From: a phage
Sequence record: PX670417.1
Reading direction: 5' to 3' (one strand)
DNA length: 64,000 bases
Shown here piece after piece: positions 2,198 to 64,000 of the stretch. Position 1 is the first letter of the stretch; the number at the start of each line of letters is the position of its first letter. The notes below the pieces were generated by a model. That model was not told where the DNA came from and did no database searches. It saw only the letters and a list, made by a program, of their open reading frames with translations. The position numbers and the translations under genes were made by a program.

Positions 2198-4432
2198 CTA
2201 AACACCACAACCCTCGCAATAAGCATCTTGCAGTGCAGATTTACCTACACCAATGCGACTGTTAAGGTAGTACATGGTTTTCATACCTACTGAGTTAGCA
2301 TAAATCATGTACTTCAAAGCTTGAGCCAATGATACCTTCTTAGACTTTGCATAGTCAACATAGAAATCTGAAGAGATAGCTTGACCAGTGAACTTTTGAA
2401 CAATTGCATAACAATCAATCAGGTCAAAGGTGTCAATATCCCAAGCAATTTCATAGACATACTTCAACTCTTCGTAATCTGGAACAATAAACAGTACGTT
2501 ACCAGTTGCAGACTTTTTAGTTAAAATAAAGTCACGAATTGGATACAAGCCGTTTGTCGTATTAGTTGCCAGTGAAGAACTCTCATTAGGCATGTAAGCT
2601 TCTAATACAGAGTTACGGATTCCACCATTTTCTTTAATACGTTGTGCTAAGTCATCCCAATCATAACGAAGTTTTGCATCATGCTTCTCATCAATCTTCC
2701 TGTTAGCTGTCTTCGGAGGAACCCAACCTTCAGGATACTTAGTGAACTGCATATACTCAGGCACACCACGTTCTTTAGCAAGTCTTAAAGAGGCTTCGTG
2801 TAAGTAGTAAGAGTGCATTTCAGCAAGCTCATGGAGCTTTGTCTTACCTGCTCTTGAAGAATAGTTCACGTAGTTTTTCGCAAGGTAATGAGCCACATTT
2901 GTAAGGCCAATACCAACAGAACGACGCTTCTGAACATGGTTGCGCATCGACGGATACGGATAATCCATAAGGTCAATAACGGAGTCAACCATTGCAAGAG
3001 CATAATAAGCAACGTCAGCGTATTCATCTTCTGAAATTCTCCCTGCAACCAAACTAGCTAGGAAGCAAAGAGCTACCTCACCATCCTCTTTCACAGCGTC
3101 ATCTCTGTAAAGGTCTGTCTCTTTCTCAAAGCCGTACACTGGCAACACAATTTCCATACAAAGATTTGACATCTTCAAAGGCTCTTTAAATGGTGTATGT
3201 GTGTTTGCATTATTTGTGAAGAATGGATACACACGGCCTGTTGCATAACGCTGCTGGATAAACAGTTTAGCAATTTCACGAGCCTTTACTCGTCTGTGCT
3301 TAACACCTGAATGCACTGCATGACCAACTGCCATAGCAAACTCATCAGCAGATGCTGTGTAGAACATGTCATAGAGCTTTGGTGCATCCTTGTAAGAGAA
3401 TAACAACCAGTCTGTATCATATTGAACACACTGCCAGAAGTAATCATTTGTACCAAATGAGTAGTCCATCTCGTTAATACGTTTCGAAGGAACCGTTGTA
3501 GGGTGCTTCAAACGCAGTAAATCTTCAATCTGCGGGTCTAGAGCAGTGTAGAAGTTGTTAGCTGAACCACCACGACTCTTCTGTTTGTTTGCCTCTACAG
3601 ATGAGCGTACAAGCTTGTAATAAGGCAGTTTACCCATGTGCTCAATAGTGTTTTGACGGATACCATCACCAATAGTGCGAGTCTCCATCAGCATACCAAT
3701 ACCAGCTTGCTTTGTGGTCATGTCATAGGCAACCTTTGCAGCAATACCTAGAGACTCAGCGGTATCATTTGCCTTAATCAAACAGCATGACGCATAACCT
3801 GATTTAGTAGCTCTTAAACCATTCAGATAAGGCGTAGGAGCATTAATCTTCAGGTCAGATAGGTAAGTGTACAGCTTGATAACATCTTGCAGTCTACGGT
3901 GCTTTGGTTGCTTCTCAAAGGCTTTCATAGCCATACCCATAAACATAAATTGTGGTGACTCAAAAAGTCTTCCCGTTTTAATATCACGGATACCATACTT
4001 GTCTCTGAACTGTTTCAAAACTGCATAACCGTAAGAGATATCTTTTGAGTGCACAATGTACCCTTGCAGATATTCAAGCTCTTCCTGAGAATAGTCCATC
4101 TTCTCCCAAAGTCCTGCTCTCTCCATATTTTTAACGAAGGTAACCAGCGTAGGAACCTTAGTAAAGCCTCCAAAGGCTTCTTTGTAGATAATCCCCAGAA
4201 GTAGCCGTCCAGCCATGTCTGAGTACTCTTGAGTTTGTTTATCAACACAAACATCAATCATGGCTTGGTGCATCTCTTTTGTAGTGCAACCCTCGTAGAC
4301 ACGTTTCATGGCTTCCATAGTGACTTCTGACCAGATAATTCCACGCTTATCTGCCCATGATGCCCACTTATTCAGTCTTTCTGGGTCAAAGTTTACTACT
4401 GTACCGTTTGATTTTTTAATTGTCTTAATCAT
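2198..4432 (-). CDS. nrdA: ribonucleotide reductase class Ia alpha subunit (R1)
   Basis: 744 aa; recognisable NrdA-like sequence including active-site region SNLCMEI and C-terminal CEGCGV tail. Confidence 0.9.
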   Translation of the reverse strand: MIKTIKKSNGTVVNFDPERLNKWASWADKRGIIWSEVTMEAMKRVYEGCTTKEMHQAMIDVCVDKQTQEYSDMAGRLLLGIIYKEAFGGFTKVPTLVTFVKNMERAGLWEKMDYSQEELEYLQGYIVHSKDISYGYAVLKQFRDKYGIRDIKTGRLFESPQFMFMGMAMKAFEKQPKHRRLQDVIKLYTYLSDLKINAPTPYLNGLRATKSGYASCCLIKANDTAESLGIAAKVAYDMTTKQAGIGMLMETRTIGDGIRQNTIEHMGKLPYYKLVRSSVEANKQKSRGGSANNFYTALDPQIEDLLRLKHPTTVPSKRINEMDYSFGTNDYFWQCVQYDTDWLLFSYKDAPKLYDMFYTASADEFAMAVGHAVHSGVKHRRVKAREIAKLFIQQRYATGRVYPFFTNNANTHTPFKEPLKMSNLCMEIVLPVYGFEKETDLYRDDAVKEDGEVALCFLASLVAGRISEDEYADVAYYALAMVDSVIDLMDYPYPSMRNHVQKRRSVGIGLTNVAHYLAKNYVNYSSRAGKTKLHELAEMHSYYLHEASLRLAKERGVPEYMQFTKYPEGWVPPKTANRKIDEKHDAKLRYDWDDLAQRIKENGGIRNSVLEAYMPNESSSLATNTTNGLYPIRDFILTKKSATGNVLFIVPDYEELKYVYEIAWDIDTFDLIDCYAIVQKFTGQAISSDFYVDYAKSKKVSLAQALKYMIYANSVGMKTMYYLNSRIGVGKSALQDAYCEGCGV

Positions 4433-4450
4433 TTTTTAAATCCTACAGAT

Positions 4451-4473
4451 GAAAAGAGCCTCCGAAGAGGCTC
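4451..4473 (-). terminator. rho-independent terminator (GAGCCTC-cgaa-GAGGCTC + U-run on minus sense)
   Basis: Perfect 7-bp stem 4456-4473 with A-run 4451-4455 on plus (U-run in minus transcript); sits after gene 4480-4818. Confidence 0.6.
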
Positions 4474-4479
4474 CCTAGT

Positions 4480-4818
4480 TTAAATCTTGAAAATTTGCTC
4501 ATTCTGCCACATATCGTAAAACTTATCACTTACCTTTGTGACTGAAGATGTGTGCATACAATTCAGGGAGAACCATGATGATGTATTATTATCCATAATT
4601 GTTTCAAGTTTTTGTGTGACATTCACATCCATGTCTGCAACAACGTAATTGCCTCGCATTTTGCAAACAACTCTTCCAAACAAGATTGCACTTCTACCTC
4701 TTCGGTCATCACAGTACATAACTGTGTCTCCGTGCTTAACATCTTGTCCGATACTGTCAACACCTAACTTAGCACCTGAGATAATGTCATCATAAGATAA
4801 CTTTTTTGCTTTAGACAC
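4480..4818 (-). CDS. hypothetical protein
   Basis: ORF track 112 aa; followed by terminator. Confidence 0.5.
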   Translation of the reverse strand: MSKAKKLSYDDIISGAKLGVDSIGQDVKHGDTVMYCDDRRGRSAILFGRVVCKMRGNYVVADMDVNVTQKLETIMDNNTSSWFSLNCMHTSSVTKVSDKFYDMWQNEQIFKI

Positions 4819-5143
4819 GGTATTTCTCCAAGTTTCTTTTTAGATATAACCAACCATAGTCAGTTCTTTCTACACCCATGAAGAGTGGAGCCATTACAAC
4901 TTTACCAAAAGTATTTCTGTGTAGGCAGATTTCAAAGGAATATTCTTTCTCAATATCAATCCCATATTTGTACAGGACTGCTTTTAAAACTTGTTCATTA
5001 TCCAGAAGTGTATCTGGAGTCTCACCATACTTCTCAAGTAACGGGTCATTCATAAACACCGTCATAGAAATATTGTAGTTTGAGAAGTGGCTCTTCTGAG
5101 CCACAACCTCTTTATTAATGTTCTGTGAATCCATTATAACCAA
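4811..5143 (-). CDS. hypothetical protein
   Basis: ORF track 110 aa, co-directional with neighbours. Confidence 0.5.
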   Translation of the reverse strand: MVIMDSQNINKEVVAQKSHFSNYNISMTVFMNDPLLEKYGETPDTLLDNEQVLKAVLYKYGIDIEKEYSFEICLHRNTFGKVVMAPLFMGVERTDYGWLYLKRNLEKYRV

Positions 5144-5870
5144 CCCCTTTTAACCAGCACTTCAGGTTATTAGCATCATAATTCAGTTTCGGGTATGAGG
5201 TTACATGGAACTGCTCACCATCATAGTAGACAATATCTGCAATCCATAGTCCATTCTCTTTACAGAAATCTTTATCTGCTTTAGAGGTAATTGGATTAAC
5301 TTCTACAAAACCATCTACACCCAAATCCTTTAAGCTACCTACAATACCTTTGCAGATAACGCATGTCTCAGATACTACCACAAAAAGTTCTTGGCTTTCA
5401 AGCTCTACAATGTATTCACCAAGCTGTACTTTAGGGAGATTTGATTGCTTCATAATCTTCCCATCGGCTGCACGGACAATCGCATACCACTCTTTACCAT
5501 CAACCACTGACATTCTGATAATACACTCTTGACCAGTACGCTTCTCAATATCTGCAAGACGTTTTAAAGCTTCTTCATAGTCATCTGTGTACTTCAGGTC
5601 ATTATTATGGCAAACAGCTTTCATAGCACCGTTATGGTCATGTTGTGACAGGTAAATCAAACCGTCAAGAACATATTGCAAATCTGCCTGAGCATCAAGT
5701 GTCTCAATGGGGTCTTTCTCTTCAATTGCTTTCACAAGCTCTTTTGCTTCTTCCAGCATACATAAAGATTGAGACTTTAAAGATTCCCAATACTCGTCAC
5801 TGTAAGGTTGCTTTTGAGTGTTCCCACAACGAAGGTTCCAGTTTTTTACTGATTCTCTTGAGTTAAACAT
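5115..5870 (-). CDS. hypothetical protein with possible MazG-like nucleotide pyrophosphohydrolase N-terminal domain
   Basis: 251 aa; segment LEEAKELVKAIEEKDPIETLDAQADLQYVLDGL resembles MazG EExxE...D motif pattern; assignment tentative. Confidence 0.4.
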   Translation of the reverse strand: MFNSRESVKNWNLRCGNTQKQPYSDEYWESLKSQSLCMLEEAKELVKAIEEKDPIETLDAQADLQYVLDGLIYLSQHDHNGAMKAVCHNNDLKYTDDYEEALKRLADIEKRTGQECIIRMSVVDGKEWYAIVRAADGKIMKQSNLPKVQLGEYIVELESQELFVVVSETCVICKGIVGSLKDLGVDGFVEVNPITSKADKDFCKENGLWIADIVYYDGEQFHVTSYPKLNYDANNLKCWLKGVGYNGFTEH

Positions 5871-17345: not shown

Positions 17346-17560
17346 CTGTAGAAGATAAATTTAAGAACGCAGTTCTTACAGAAGATGGTGAGCTTGAAAC
17401 ATTCATTCTTCGTGTTGATGGTAAGCTATTCCGGTGTCGTTGTGGGTCAAACTGTTTCCATAAACCAGATAAAAATGACTTAGAGCTTTACGCATGTAAT
17501 GCTTGTTACACTTGGTATCACTCAGAGGTTAAAAATGACAATTCTGTACAAACAAAATAA
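17342..17560 (+). CDS. small Cys-rich (zinc-ribbon-like) protein
   Basis: 72 aa with CRCGSNC and CNAC pairs. Confidence 0.45.
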   Translation: MTVEDKFKNAVLTEDGELETFILRVDGKLFRCRCGSNCFHKPDKNDLELYACNACYTWYHSEVKNDNSVQTK

Positions 17561-18635
17561 AGACGGCTCTTTTAACGTCTGGTCATGCGTTGCTGTAGGT
17601 GACAAAGTTGTTACAACCTACGGTAAAGAAAATGGCAAGATGATGTTTGAAGAGTATACAGCAGAACCTAAAAACATCGGTAAAAAGAATGAGCGTAACG
17701 CTGAACAGCAAGCTCTCTTTGAAGTTGCTGCTAAGTATAAAAAGCAAGTTGACCGCAAAGGTTATGCTTACACAAAAGAGTCTGCACATAACACTGAAAA
17801 GGTAGGTGTACAGCTTGCTCATGATGCTGCAAAAGTTAGTCATGCAAAGTATTTGATATTCCCTGCTGATGCTCAACCAAAACTTGATGGTGTTCGTTGT
17901 AGAATTTCAAGAGATGCTGATTCAGTTAGCTTCACGGCTTATTCTCGTGAAAATACTGTTTACAACGTCCCAGCAGAACTAATCCCAGATTTGCTTTTGT
18001 TGCTTAAATTGCATCCACAAGTCGAGGACTTTGATGGTGAGATTTATGCTCATGGCTGGGACTTAGAAGATATTGTATCTATGATTAAGAATGCTGACAA
18101 TCCAGACCGTCACCTTCTTAAATTCTACTGGTATGATATCTGTGACAATTCAAGAACTTGGCCTGAGCGTCGTGAAATTATTGATAGCTCACCCATTATT
18201 GAGCTTGGTGATACCTGTAGAGTAGTTCCTGTACAGACTATCCGTGTTAACTCTTGGGAAGAGTTTGATGAAGCTCATGATAAGTGGGTTGAAGCTAAGT
18301 TTGAAGGTGCAATGTACCGTTCAATCTCTGAAGATTCCTTCTACGAGTGTTGTCACCGTTCATACTTCTTGATTAAACATAAGAAGATGCACACTGAAGA
18401 GTTTAAAGTGACTGGTGTCAAGACCGATAAACGTGGTCATGGTAAGTTCGTTGTAGAGACTCTTCCTAACGTCTTTGTAGATGTCTCATGGAAGACTACT
18501 CATGAGAAGAAACAGTATCTTGCTGAACATCCTGAAGAGTTTATCGGGAAGCCTTTAACGGTTCAGTTCCAGAAGATGACTCGTAAGGGTTCTTTGCAGT
18601 TCCCTGTTGGGTTAGTCATACGAGATTATGAATAA
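17535..18635 (+). CDS. ATP-dependent DNA ligase
   Basis: Motif I KLDGVR (adenylation lysine); start set to ATG 17535 with GAGG RBS. Confidence 0.75.
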   Translation: MTILYKQNKDGSFNVWSCVAVGDKVVTTYGKENGKMMFEEYTAEPKNIGKKNERNAEQQALFEVAAKYKKQVDRKGYAYTKESAHNTEKVGVQLAHDAAKVSHAKYLIFPADAQPKLDGVRCRISRDADSVSFTAYSRENTVYNVPAELIPDLLLLLKLHPQVEDFDGEIYAHGWDLEDIVSMIKNADNPDRHLLKFYWYDICDNSRTWPERREIIDSSPIIELGDTCRVVPVQTIRVNSWEEFDEAHDKWVEAKFEGAMYRSISEDSFYECCHRSYFLIKHKKMHTEEFKVTGVKTDKRGHGKFVVETLPNVFVDVSWKTTHEKKQYLAEHPEEFIGKPLTVQFQKMTRKGSLQFPVGLVIRDYE

Positions 18636-18641
18636 AAGTTG

Positions 18642-18669
18642 TTGACATAGAAAATTTGGTGAGTATACT
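18642..18669 (+). promoter_or_regulatory. sigma70-like promoter TTGACA-16-TATACT
   Basis: TTGACA 18642-18647, TATACT 18664-18669; transcript would run through repeat region R1. Confidence 0.55.
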
Positions 18670-18699
18670 GAGCAGCATAAACCAACGGGTACTCACCAG

Positions 18700-18738
18700 C
18701 ATCACTTAAGAGTCTTTGAAAAGGGTTTTTAAGTGATG
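18700..18738 (+). other. long hairpin (10-bp stem CATCACTTAA / TTAAGTGATG), copy 1
   Basis: Perfect 10-bp inverted repeat with 19-nt loop; second copy at 20224-20262. Confidence 0.5.
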
Positions 18739-18749
18739 TGTAGCTCGGT

Positions 18750-18815
18750 CAGGTATGGTGCGGTGGTGTAAGGTGGTGTCAGGTGTAGTATGGTGCGGTG
18801 AGGTTCGGTATGGGT
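18750..18815 (+). repeat. GGT-rich degenerate short tandem repeat tract (R1a)
   Basis: ggtatggtgcggtggtgtaaggtggtgtcaggtgtagtatggtgcggtgaggttcggtatggg; 5-6 nt periodicity. Confidence 0.6.
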
Positions 18816-18819
18816 AGTT

Positions 18820-18852
18820 AGTCTCAGCTACATTAAAATGAGACTTATCTTT
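18820..18852 (+). other. conserved hairpin AGTCTCA-gctacattaaaa-TGAGACT followed by T-run (terminator-like), copy 1
   Basis: 7-bp stem; near-identical copy at 20329-20353; variant copy at 20197-20222 keeps pairing through compensatory changes. Confidence 0.55.
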
Positions 18853-18885
18853 TTAAAAGGTCTTTAAGAGGGTCTTTTAATAAGG

Positions 18886-18950
18886 TGTGGTAGGGTTAGG
18901 TGGAGTTGGGTATGGTGTGGTGTGGCACGGTGTGGGTGGATGGTAGTAGC
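18886..18950 (+). repeat. GGT-rich degenerate short tandem repeat tract (R1b)
   Basis: gtggtagggttaggtggagttgggtatggtgtggtgtggcacggtgtgggtgg. Confidence 0.6.
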
Positions 18951-18951
18951 C

Positions 18952-18967
18952 ACGTTAAAAATCTACC
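18952..18967 (+). other. hairpin GGTAG-N6-CTACC; counterpart at 20457-20482 is GGCAG/CTGCC
   Basis: Stem differs from R2 copy by a compensatory T/A to C/G change. Confidence 0.45.
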
Positions 18968-19025
18968 AAGTTTCTAAAGAGTCTTCTGTTGAGGGTTCTT
19001 TACAAACAACTTAACAATCAACTAA

Positions 19026-19631
<606 letters not shown>

Positions 19632-19633
19632 TT

Positions 19634-20074
19634 ATGAATACAAAAGCATTAGCAGCAAAGTTTAGTTACGGCGACACTGTATCACATTCCGAGATGGACA
19701 CCTTCTTAGGTATTGTGAAGCCAACCTATCAAGGTGACATTGTTAAGTACGAAGATGAAATGAAGGCTTATGCACTTACACGTCTAAACCGACTTGAGAA
19801 GTTTATTGAAAAGCTTCTTAAAGAAGAGAAGATTTATCTGGTTGCTTCAATGGGTGTTGGTTATCGTGTGGTTGAACCTAAGCATCAAGCAACTATTGCA
19901 AAACGCAAAATGTCTGGTAAGATTGGTCGAGCTTTAAAGCAAGCCACTCAAGCAATTGAGAATGTGAACACTATGGCGCTTAGTCATCAAGAACGTTCAC
20001 GACTGATTGAACAGCAAAACCATTTAGCTGCTATGAAAGCTAACATTAACAAGCAACGTAGAAAACCTTTCTAA
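19634..20074 (+). CDS. hypothetical protein
   Basis: ORF track 146 aa; followed by terminator. Confidence 0.55.
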   Translation: MNTKALAAKFSYGDTVSHSEMDTFLGIVKPTYQGDIVKYEDEMKAYALTRLNRLEKFIEKLLKEEKIYLVASMGVGYRVVEPKHQATIAKRKMSGKIGRALKQATQAIENVNTMALSHQERSRLIEQQNHLAAMKANINKQRRKPF

Positions 20075-20085
20075 GTTGACTAGGT

Positions 20086-20110
20086 AGCCTCTTCGGAGGC
20101 TCCTTTTTAA
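20086..20110 (+). terminator. rho-independent terminator (AGCCTC-ttcg-GAGGCT + T-run)
   Basis: Stem 20086-20101 then CCTTTTT; same hairpin sequence as terminator at 4456-4473 in opposite orientation. Confidence 0.65.
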
Positions 20111-20139
20111 AAGGTCTTTTAAGAGGGTCTTTTAATGAG

Positions 20140-20196
20140 GTAAGGTGCGGTCTGGCAAGGCATGGTATGGTTGGGTGAGGTGAGGTATGGGTAGTT
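20140..20196 (+). repeat. GGT-rich degenerate short tandem repeat tract (R2a)
   Basis: taaggtgcggtctggcaaggcatggtatggttgggtgaggtgaggtatggg. Confidence 0.6.
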
Positions 20197-20222
20197 AATC
20201 GGAGCTACATTAAAATTCGATT
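20197..20222 (+). other. variant hairpin AATCGGA-gctacattaaaa-TTCGATT
   Basis: Same loop as 18820 and 20329 hairpins but different stem sequence that still pairs (three compensatory differences incl. one G-T wobble). Confidence 0.55.
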
Positions 20223-20223
20223 A

Positions 20224-20262
20224 CATCACTTAAGAGTCTTCTAAGAGGGTTTTTAAGTGATG
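20224..20262 (+). other. long hairpin (10-bp stem CATCACTTAA / TTAAGTGATG), copy 2
   Basis: Same stem as 18700-18738; loop differs at a few positions. Confidence 0.5.
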
Positions 20263-20264
20263 TT

Positions 20265-20328
20265 CGGTAGGGTCTGGTAGGGTAAGGTCTGGTCTGGTAG
20301 GGTCTGGTAGGGTGAGGTATGGGTAGTT
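20265..20328 (+). repeat. GGT-rich degenerate short tandem repeat tract (R2b)
   Basis: gttcggtagggtctggtagggtaaggtctggtctggtagggtctggtagggtgaggtatggg. Confidence 0.6.
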
Positions 20329-20360
20329 AGTCTCAGCTACATTAAAATGAGACTTACCTT
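20329..20360 (+). other. conserved hairpin AGTCTCA-gctacattaaaa-TGAGACT followed by T-run, copy 2
   Basis: Near-identical to 18820-18852 including flanks (about 80 nt direct repeat 18806-18888 vs 20318-20399). Confidence 0.55.
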
Positions 20361-20394
20361 TTTAAAAGGTCTTTAAACAGGGTGTTTTAATAAG

Positions 20395-20456
20395 GTGCTG
20401 TATGGTGGGGTAAGGTAGGGTTAGGCGAGGTCAGGTGAGGTTTGGTATGGAAGGAT
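20395..20456 (+). repeat. GGT-rich degenerate short tandem repeat tract (R2c)
   Basis: gtgctgtatggtggggtaaggtagggttaggcgaggtcaggtgaggtttggtatgg. Confidence 0.6.
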
Positions 20457-20501
20457 GGCAGTAGCCTTATAAAAAATCTGCCAAATAAGCTATAAAATCT
20501 G

Positions 20502-20530
20502 TTGACAAGTCAGGTGTTATAGCTTATTTT
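20502..20530 (+). promoter_or_regulatory. sigma70-like promoter GTTGACAAGT...TATTTT
   Basis: TTGACA 20502-20507, 17-bp spacer, TATTTT; about 45 nt upstream of gene at 20575. Confidence 0.45.
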
Positions 20531-20574
20531 TATACTCAACGTAATACAAAATTTAATATAACTTTGAGGTCATT

Positions 20575-20958
20575 ATGAAAAAGATTTTATTAGCTGCTGC
20601 AATGGTTATGGCAATGAATTTACCAGTCAATGCAACAGAACTCCCAAATGTGGACTTATCAGGTGTTCCAGAAGACACTTGCCAGATTGTTAAAGGTGTT
20701 TCTCTGGCTAATGGTGAGTTACTTAAACCAATCTCTGAAGAGTCTTTGACAGAGATGACTGATAAGGTAACTGACTATCAATATCGCGTTCTTGCAGAGT
20801 ATTTCCTGCAATCTGCAAATATTAAAGAGAAGCACCATGATGATATTGATGTACAGGCTATGCTCAATCATCGTATTCAGTTTAAAGAAGATTTGATGCA
20901 AAAAGCTATGTATAGTGTTGAGTATTTCTTAGAAAACAGAAGCTGCACAGGTATTTGA
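20575..20958 (+). CDS. secreted/periplasmic protein with N-terminal signal peptide
   Basis: MKKILLAAAMVMAMNLPVNA-TE signal-peptide-like N-terminus; 127 aa. Confidence 0.5.
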   Translation: MKKILLAAAMVMAMNLPVNATELPNVDLSGVPEDTCQIVKGVSLANGELLKPISEESLTEMTDKVTDYQYRVLAEYFLQSANIKEKHHDDIDVQAMLNHRIQFKEDLMQKAMYSVEYFLENRSCTGI

Positions 20959-28291: not shown

Positions 28292-36289
<7,998 letters not shown>

Positions 36290-63014: not shown

Positions 63015-64000
63015 CCTCTGTATAACCCTTCTAAACACTCTTCTAACAAGCCTTCTTAACAACCTATACAATCACCTTAACCATCCCTCTACACCCTCTT
63101 AGAAGCCCCTATACACCTCTTAATCTCTATGTCAGCTATGTTACCCTCTATAGGTGTTCACTAGGTATTACTAAGCCTCTATATAGACTGTTTTAACAAA
63201 CTTAACAGGAATATCTTTACAGACCTTATCTCACAAGGTCTAACACGGTACTAACAAGGTATCTTATAAGCCTGTTTATGCCTGTATTTTTAAAAGACTG
63301 TCTAGGTAATTATTCAGAATTTTAAAATTTTTATAAAATAGGATTATCAAGTCATTTTTTAGGGTCTTTGAAGGAACTCAAAAATATCTGTAGAAGATGT
63401 ATATCTGCTTGGTAGCCCTTAACAGCCCTGTAACATCCCCTTTGCAGAATTTTAAAATATCATTAACAATCTCTTAACAGTTATTACATCTTCTTAACAT
63501 CTCTTCAGAGGTCTTAACAGATTTTTAACAGAACTAACAAGGGTTTAACAGTTTTCTAACAAGTGCTGAATAGTCTTTACAGATGATTAACAGATGACTA
63601 ACAAGAGCTAACAAGTTAATTTTTAAGAGTTATTTTGTTAAGATAATTAACAAGTTTCTAACAAGTGTTTAATCTTTTTAACAAGCTATTAACATGGTCA
63701 CTATCTCTTTCTTATCGTTCCCTTTCCCTCTTAGTGATTCTTTAAATAGCCCTCTTAAAAGCTCTCTATAGCTCCTTGTAAGCTCTTTTTAGTCTCTTTC
63801 TAGTAATTACACCCCAACTATGTAGAAAGCTCTTTATAGGGCTTTACAGGGGCTTTAAAGACTATGTCAAAGACTCTTACAAGGCTTTTACATGGTTTTA
63901 ACAGAGATTTAACAAGGGGCTAACAAGTTGCTAACAAGTGTCTTAAAAGCATAACTATGTAGGGTTTGTTAAGAAATTGTTAAGAAAATGTTAAGGGGGC
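63015..64000. repeat. dense array of short TAACA(A/G) / CTAACAAG motifs (iteron-like), with inverted TGTTAAG copies at the end
   Basis: At least 25 copies of TTAACAG / CTAACAAG / TTAACAA over about 1 kb with no ORFs; densest 63460-63700 at roughly 10-12 bp spacing; CTTGTTAAGAAATTGTTAAGAAAATGTTAAG at 63966-63995. Confidence 0.6.

Follow-up and report, generated by a model that had tools for sequence, protein, structure and literature searches.

A CRISPR array is composed of identical direct repeats of 28–37 nt separated by unique contiguous spacers, with cas genes located nearby. In the trp leader of Bacillus, 11 (G/U)AG triplets separated by 2–3-nt spacers are wrapped on the 11-mer ring of TRAP. 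Viral Interference Programmable Repeat (VIPR), described in two 2026 bioRxiv preprints, is a phage-encoded, CRISPR-like system of RNA-guided DNA silencing (10.64898/2026.04.26.720920, 10.64898/2026.04.26.720927). It is a recently reported form of RNA-guided DNA recognition with a noncontiguous guide and has been proposed to be older than CRISPR. The Vipr protein is small (~20-kDa) and has a RAMP fold, and its guide RNAs (vrRNAs) carry 9–16 YNNGG repeats and end in a constant 3' tail that, in the SUSP1 clade, folds as a pseudoknot. The published locus has just two genes, vipr and an accessory gene that in type II is vap1. The system works in trans from plasmids, and the natural targets of the SUSP1 clade lie mostly in an E. 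coli satellite phage; they match at least 80% of NN positions under a 1-nt skip that falls on the codon wobble base, and self-matches at that level are avoided (10.64898/2026.04.26.720920, 10.64898/2026.04.26.720927). For SUSP1 it was shown that the vrRNAs are expressed and purify together with Vipr, and that DNA matching them is silenced (10.64898/2026.04.26.720920). Cryo-EM revealed that each GGY is bound by one Vipr protomer, and the structures account for every conserved base of the tract (10.64898/2026.04.26.720927).

VIPR and the Class 1 CRISPR-Cas backbone, in which Cas7 is assembled on the crRNA, are alike in that a RAMP-fold protein polymerises on a guide RNA, a thumb flips bases at a fixed period, the variable guide is capped by a constant structured handle and foreign DNA is recognised through the RNA. 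VIPR differs in lacking both a repeat-spacer array and the cas1/cas2 genes for adaptation. Its guide is interleaved (2 of every 5 nt) and read with a 1-nt skip, whereas the CRISPR guide is contiguous, and it relies on one small protein that is phage-encoded, with a published outcome of silencing and not cleavage. The TRAP-trp leader likewise contains a triplet that recurs at 5-nt intervals in roughly a dozen copies, each bound by one subunit, but TRAP is a closed ring that acts in cis on the leader of its own operon and the spacers are uninformative, whereas VIPR forms an open helical filament on a trans-acting RNA whose spacers are the guide.

Organization of the locus

The window analysed here is a 64-kb stretch of phage DNA. 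The best nucleotide match of the 501 bases around the repeat tracts was Escherichia phage ESCO45, at 97%, and the same 501 bases matched 239 phage records, nearly all of them Felix O1-like myoviruses (Felixounavirus and relatives, ~88 kb). Judged by these matches, the source of the window is a Felix O1-like myovirus, a Felixounavirus close to ESCO45 and wV8.

Five tracts of GGYNN pentamers were found in the window, all on the + strand, containing 13, 10, 10, 11 and 11 repeats. The upstream cluster consists of tracts at 18747–18811 (13 pentamers) and 18884–18933 (10 pentamers), the two G/T-rich tracts to which the initial annotation had drawn attention. The downstream cluster, where it had noted three similar tracts in a second repeat region, consists of tracts at 20139–20188, 20266–20320 and 20394–20448. 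The 'GGTNNG' periodicity it described was borne out, the true period being 5 nt, and its description of the tracts as unusual proved correct: 8–11 in-phase GGT per 60 nt were counted in the five tracts compared to at most 4 in 50 shuffles, and no further tract with at least 5 in-phase GGT per 60 nt was present on either strand of the whole 64 kb. These tracts are not among the repeats listed in the genome paper on Felix O1 (PMC3185647).

Each tract is the core of a unit of 122–147 nt, in which an element of 37–45 nt is followed by the pentamer tract and then by a 33-nt pseudoknot tail. The units are only 62–76% alike, and the variable information resides in the interleaved dinucleotides. A CRISPR array was rejected as an identity for the repeats on the basis of these interleaved dinucleotides, the 122–147-nt units and the lack of cas families among the neighbouring ORFs (Pfam, PHROGs). 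The tract region is placed between the DNA ligase gene (17499–18635) and the ORF starting at 19044, and the two tract clusters bracket a two-gene cassette at 19044–20074.

The gene order is that of the published type, vipr followed by vap1 with vrRNA genes on both flanks and on the same strand, and the 10–13 repeats per tract lie inside the published range of 9–16. The region 18642–20482 is almost certainly a type II VIPR locus of the SUSP1 clade that carries vipr, vap1 and five vrRNA genes, and the GGT-rich tracts, as far as their sequence tells, are trans-acting guide-RNA genes (vrRNAs). Because VIPR has been published and the structure of a near-identical protein has been deposited, the finding of the tracts is already known: they are real, but already explained by published VIPR. 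The SUSP1 VIPR (PDB 36pp) is similar to the present system in Vipr (98%), in the position of vap1 directly downstream, in GGY/NN tracts with a 3' pseudoknot, in same-strand flanking arrays, in satellite targets read with a 1-nt skip, in wobble skips (vrRNA1, vrRNA5) and in the lack of self-targeting. The two differ in the number of vrRNAs upstream and downstream, 2/3 in this phage compared to 1/3 in SUSP1, in their guide sets, and in the host phage, which is a Felixounavirus here and a Suspvirus for SUSP1.

The window is a clear natural example of VIPR in which vrRNA genes can be recognised in the raw sequence by GGYNN periodicity alone. For annotation, the tracts should become vrRNA genes and the two 'hypothetical' ORFs vipr and vap1, and over 100 Felix O1-like phage records, in which these features are currently unannotated, call for the same relabelling.

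The vipr and vap1 genes

The first ORF of the cassette begins with ATG at 19044, as had been annotated initially, and extends to 19631 on the + strand. It encodes a RAMP-like protein of 195 aa, which was aligned to PDB 36pp chain D, 'SUSP1 Vipr protein', with 98% identity over 195/195 residues (E 6e-128). A profile search with the Vipr family also returned PDB 36pp (E 3e-81). The only differences from the deposited chain are at positions 18, 119, 189 and 190. In the alignment with PDB 36pp the contact residues H17, K33, R39, E71, M72, K82, G87, K88, R138, C173, D177, W178 and R179 are all present; these 13 residues are the published contacts of SUSP1 Vipr with GGY, the target strand and the non-target strand (10.64898/2026.04.26.720920, 10.64898/2026.04.26.720927).

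The second ORF, at 19634–20074 on the + strand, is located directly 3' of vipr, with its start 3 nt past the vipr end, and its 146-aa product is predicted to be the Vipr-accessory protein, Vap1, a putative DNA-binding protein. The DNA of vipr and vap together is 95.2% identical to phiSUSP1 over 100% of its length, and both genes are intact and 95–100% identical to their counterparts in many relatives. Neither the vipr nor the vap1 ORF gave a match in Pfam. In PHROGs the flanked ORFs fall in families of 'unknown function', with vap1 assigned to phrog_5926.

vrRNA genes and pseudoknot tails

All five vrRNA genes are on the + strand. vrRNA1 (18747–18845) contains 13 GGYNN repeats (18747–18811) and a 3' pseudoknot tail (18813–18845), with the guide CA AT GC GG AA GG CA GT AT GC GA TC AT. 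vrRNA2 (18884–18967) has 10 repeats (18884–18933), a second-type pseudoknot tail (18935–18967) and the guide GT AG TA GG TG AT GT GT AC GT. The first gene of the downstream cluster, vrRNA3 (20139–20222), also has 10 repeats (20139–20188); its guide is AA GC CT AA AT AT TG GA GA AT, and stem 2 of its pseudoknot tail (20190–20222) is formed by AAUCGGA/UUCGAUU. Eleven repeats are found both in vrRNA4 (20266–20354; repeats 20266–20320, pseudoknot tail 20322–20354), with the guide AG CT AG AA CT CT AG CT AG GA AT, and in vrRNA5 (20394–20482; repeats 20394–20448, second-type pseudoknot tail 20450–20482), with the guide GC AT GG AA AG TA GA CA GA TT AT. In the closest of 18 relatives, vrRNA4 shares at most 7/11 and vrRNA5 at most 4/11 dinucleotides.

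The pseudoknot was examined in 15 distinct tails, one of them from a satellite, which were aligned gap-free. The structure.((((..[[[[[[[.)))).......]]]]]]] was paired in 90% of cells, compared to only 29–43% in slid-partner controls, and compensatory changes were present in 9/11 pairs. The covariation score was reached by 0/500 shuffles. Both the pseudoknot and the hairpins described below use G.U pairs and covary, indicating a strand-specific RNA. When Rfam covariance models were searched, only tRNAs reached the gathering score, and nothing meaningful was returned in 18600–20600 even at E<=10. Twenty-five tRNA genes are clustered on the minus strand at window 47991–53552; ARAGORN reported a tRNA-??? 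with an odd two-base anticodon at 49928–50002, which is an ordinary tRNA by its Rfam score.

By the published mechanism, one Vipr protomer would be bound per GGY at this locus, with the GGY flipped out and the NN dinucleotides presented. The dinucleotides would pair with dsDNA of the form NNxNNx..., one target base being skipped per repeat, and the Vipr-vrRNA complex would silence transcription of its target. For this phage it is inferred from the 98%-identical SUSP1 system that the vrRNAs are expressed, that they assemble with Vipr into a complex and that silencing follows.

The putative promoter region

The sequence TTGACA-16-TATACT, from which the initial annotation would have transcribed a non-coding leader, is present on the + strand at 18642–18669, ahead of the first vrRNA cluster and the vipr-vap1 cassette. 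It agrees with 11/12 consensus positions, is the top sigma-70 match within 17–22 kb and is kept in BPS17W1 and FO1a, consistent with a putative sigma-70-like promoter. At the other end of the cassette, 3' of vap1, an intrinsic-terminator-like hairpin (AGCCTCTTCGGAGGCT) followed by a T-run is found on the + strand at 20086–20108 (hairpin 20086–20101).

The strong promoter-like site upstream, together with a conserved triplet every 5 nt in 10–13 copies, which is the geometry of a TRAP site, would be in keeping with a cis-acting 5' leader transcribed from 18642, on which a bound protein attenuates or controls translation of the downstream ORF in a TRAP-like manner. The product of the neighbouring gene does bind the tract, as published for SUSP1 and expected here by analogy. 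This reading is nevertheless very improbable. Three of the five units are 3' of the cassette and its terminator-like hairpin, units remain where the locus lacks vipr and vap1, and the NN dinucleotides match foreign DNA, which together argue that the tracts are not a cis leader. The NN dinucleotides are moreover hypervariable between near-identical phages, for which a cis operator would have no need, published VIPR acts in trans from plasmids, and no TRAP family was matched by Pfam in the 8 ORFs between 17499 and 22354. For the same three reasons (units beyond the cassette, persistence without it and NN matches to foreign DNA) the initial suggestion that the tracts regulate the downstream ORF at the level of translation or transcription did not hold. 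The accompanying idea of a protein-binding site was broadly upheld: Vipr binds one pentamer per protomer in the published SUSP1 structures, and the tracts would act as RNA. A TRAP-type attenuation leader was likewise rejected as a class for the tracts, the period-5 triplet being present but three of the five tracts lying downstream of the genes. A TRAP-like ring, a G-quadruplex and an opposite-strand rut site were dropped given the PDB match, the NN variability and the target data, and a T7-type primase-site cluster or origin, a Chi/RecA hotspot and a type III toxin-antitoxin repeat RNA were dropped on the same grounds.

A 9-nt inverted repeat, TGGTGAGTA / TACTCACCA, is located at window 18658–18666 and 18690–18698, the first arm extending into the -10 hexamer of the predicted promoter at 18642. 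As it is conserved in BPS17W1 and FO1a, this inverted repeat might act either as an operator or as a 5' structure.

Inter-unit elements and units without vipr

The units are preceded by an inter-unit element with the motif GTCTT-N5-7-GGGTnTTT, enclosed by inverted repeats that come in two alternative sequences. Six copies are present, ahead of each of the five vrRNAs and of vipr, and elsewhere in the 64 kb the motif occurs only as one 1-mismatch site at 63351. All copies are on the + strand. The copy before vrRNA1, hairpin H1 (18699–18739; CAUCACUUAAGAGUCUUU...AAGGGUUUUUAAGUGAUG, with G.U pairs), has the motif form GTCTT-N5-GGGTnTTT and a folding energy of -18 kcal/mol (z -4.8), and the copy before vrRNA4, hairpin H5 (20223–20263), forms a 19-bp stem with G.U pairs at -19.3 kcal/mol (z -7.2). 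Element H2 (18847–18883; UUUUUAAAAGGUCUUUAAGAGGGUCUUUUAAUAA) is a weak hairpin (z -1.1), element H4 is located at 20102–20138 (-8.3 kcal/mol, z -1.35) and element H6 at 20355–20393; the sixth copy (AAAGAGUCUUCUGUUGAGGGUUCUUUAC) lies directly upstream of vipr at 18970–19007. The two 'CATCAC' copies (z -4.8 and -7.2) form RNA hairpins of 19–20 bp, while the other copies fold weakly. Since the 'CATCAC' hairpins need G.U pairs they are specific to the + strand. The inter-unit elements could be processing, termination or promoter signals. The annotation of phage ASO1B places terminators at two positions inside the vrRNA clusters, where the correspondence to the element is by cluster only. The main texts of 10.64898/2026.04.26.720920 and 10.64898/2026.04.26.720927 and one supplement contain no mention of the inter-unit elements.

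Units were also found at loci from which the cassette is missing. Salmonella phage BPS17W1 (L128 2500–2790) has two intact vrRNA units without vipr or vap1 at the locus, and Felix O1/FO1a (Salmonella phage FO1a, L129 2500–2640) has one degenerate unit, again without either gene. Approximately 231 phage records match the unit region compared to 118 Felix O1-like records with vipr, an excess that fits deletion through recombination between units. This suggests, from the sequences compared, that the cassette was deleted by recombination between the repeated units, leaving orphan guides. Units lacking vipr at this locus are likewise not mentioned in these two main texts or in that supplement.

A tentative reading that joins these observations, with perhaps one chance in a few of being right as a whole, takes the ~40-nt hairpins as a dedicated vrRNA-end signal and unit recombination as the source of orphan arrays that borrow or titrate Vipr in trans. 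The hairpins would set the vrRNA ends by processing or termination, like CRISPR repeat hairpins, and the orphan arrays of BPS17W1 and Felix O1/FO1a would borrow or titrate the Vipr of a co-infecting phage.

Conservation among relatives

The relatives that had been proposed as a check showed the tracts to be positionally conserved and not absent: they were present in 18/18 Felix O1-like loci examined, and their placement relative to the 195-aa gene was constant, with 0–3 tract copies per side. Conservation within the tracts was measured for 19 genomes containing 66 units, giving 53 unique tracts and 597 pentamers with 8–16 repeats per tract. Among the 53 unique tracts the entropy at G, G and Y was 0.61, 0.12 and 0.49 bits; for the N positions the values were 1.92 and 1.89 bits. 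GGY motifs were 89–99% intact and GGTAT was the last pentamer in 35/53 tracts. The NN content was hypervariable even between near-identical phages.

The guide of the vrRNA3 tract (20139–20188) is nearly shared, at 9/10 dinucleotides, with L005 5372–5421 and L008 4937–4986, and near-identical guides of the vrRNA3 type carry different tail types and occupy different array positions in different phages. Relatives of vrRNA1 differ by inserted extra GGTGG-TGTAA repeats. From the guides shared on different tails and the inserted repeats, the guides seem to spread and lengthen by recombination and repeat slippage.

The tracts were also found beside a distant protein. Locus L025 (IMGVR_UViG_3300020049_003234, 3880–5320), a metagenomic viral contig, encodes a Vipr homologue at 37% identity in a comparable cassette of two genes, all of whose intergenic gaps are filled by coding-strand GGTNN tracts of 13–19 pentamers. 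Since tracts bracket Vipr even at 37% identity, the tracts and the protein belong together. The 148-aa second gene of L025 was not significantly similar to vap1 by BLASTP (E 3.3), and the structures flanking its tracts are unlike those in the window.

T7-type primase sites have the sequence GGGTC or TGGTC, and some pentamers of the tracts read GGGTC or TGGTC. Both a T7-like polymerase and a gp4-like primase-helicase are among the phage's proteins (PMC3185647), and GG runs recur every 5 nt in the tracts. These features would be expected of a DNA-level element, either a replication origin or primase-site cluster, a Chi-like or RecA-preferred GT hotspot, or a G-quadruplex of the form (GG-N3)n, yet such an element has practically no probability when set against the conservation data. 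The base after GGY is free (entropy 1.9 bits), so GGTC is not selected, and the conserved Y would be needless for a quadruplex. The G.U-using, covarying pseudoknot and hairpins indicate a strand-specific RNA, the association with Vipr persists at 37% protein identity, and each conserved base is explained by the published cryo-EM structures.

Two records with Felix O1-like sequence are attributed to phages of unrelated hosts. GU169904.1 (Staphylococcus phage SA1) contains a 99.5%-identical vipr, and MG065668.1 (Campylobacter phage A126) has a 92% match to 50 nt of the unit region. Both records are probably mixed or mislabelled.

Predicted targets in an E. coli satellite

A satellite-like element of ~11 kb was located in E. 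coli chromosomes through its baseplate gene, which has ~92% DNA identity to window 33283–34080. It encodes a serine recombinase and tape-measure and baseplate proteins, along with an HNH endonuclease; a Dam-type methylase is frequently present as well. The satellite was present in 474/5,426 complete E. coli genomes at a minimum of three insertion sites, yciI-tonB, the DUF72 gene next to yecD, and ymdF-wrbA. One example is L106 5800–17350, from E. coli strain 20 (NZ_CP064847), where the insertion is at yciI-tonB, and further loci are L107–L120. A BLAST search with the three-unit cluster matched nothing in E. coli genomes.

The five NN codes were scanned with the 1-nt-skip rule against 15 satellite loci out of the 474 satellite-bearing genomes. 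vrRNA1 matched 21–23/26 NN positions in 9 loci, where the best order-shuffled guide gave 20 and skips of 0, 2 or 3 nt gave at best 17–18. For vrRNA5 the match was 19–20/22 in 6 loci (order-shuffled best 17; 0-, 2- and 3-nt skips best 15–17), and for vrRNA3 it was 18/20 in 4 loci (order-shuffled best 17; 0-, 2- and 3-nt skips best 15). These three guides therefore match the satellite at 81–91% NN, solely under a 1-nt skip, and all three predicted sites are within the satellite, with none in the flanking chromosome.

The predicted target of vrRNA1 is the satellite tape-measure gene, with the site CAgATgGCtGGtAAgGGtCAgGTtATgGCtGA in NNx form, and that of vrRNA5 is a satellite gene whose product is a hypothetical protein of 128 aa, with the site GCcAAtGGcAAcAGaTAcGAtAAaGAtTTaAT in NNx form. 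Both sites begin at codon position 1, and in both of these coding-sequence targets the bases skipped are those at the wobble position. The predicted vrRNA3 target is an intergenic palindromic terminator-like hairpin ~110 nt upstream of a satellite gene of ~235 aa. As the vrRNA3 match is one above the best shuffled guide and falls on a palindromic hairpin, it is the weakest of the three. For vrRNA2 no credible target was found in the 15 satellite loci, and an exact-pattern scan of IMG/VR was empty; satellite matches of 80–85% were rejected because they fall on the G/T-rich 3' ends and tails of the satellites' own vrRNAs. For vrRNA4, too, neither the 15 satellite loci nor the IMG/VR exact-pattern scan yielded a credible target, and the 7 matches in the IMG/VR scan were rejected as low-complexity coding repeats of unrelated viruses, in about the number expected by chance.

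The two guides for which no target was identified could point to a decayed remnant, a homologous VIPR locus whose guides are relics without present function, and relatives without vipr do keep decaying units, such as the one degenerate unit of FO1a. Against such decay, vipr and vap1 are intact and 95–100% identical to many relatives, GGY motifs are 89–99% intact, three guides match the satellite at 81–91% and the pseudoknots are intact, which makes a remnant highly improbable. The predicted targets suggest that the phage uses VIPR against an ~11-kb satellite that shares its tail genes. The predicted targeting of this satellite matters for host-range and phage-therapy work on Felix O1-like phages.

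No guide reached 80% NN anywhere in the 64-kb window, the best self-matches being 68–75%, and the homologous counterpart of the vrRNA1 target in the tape-measure gene of the phage itself matched at 18/26. Some of the satellites (e.g. L110 and L113, on the minus strand) contain a vrRNA-like tract and pseudoknot tail of their own, without vipr.
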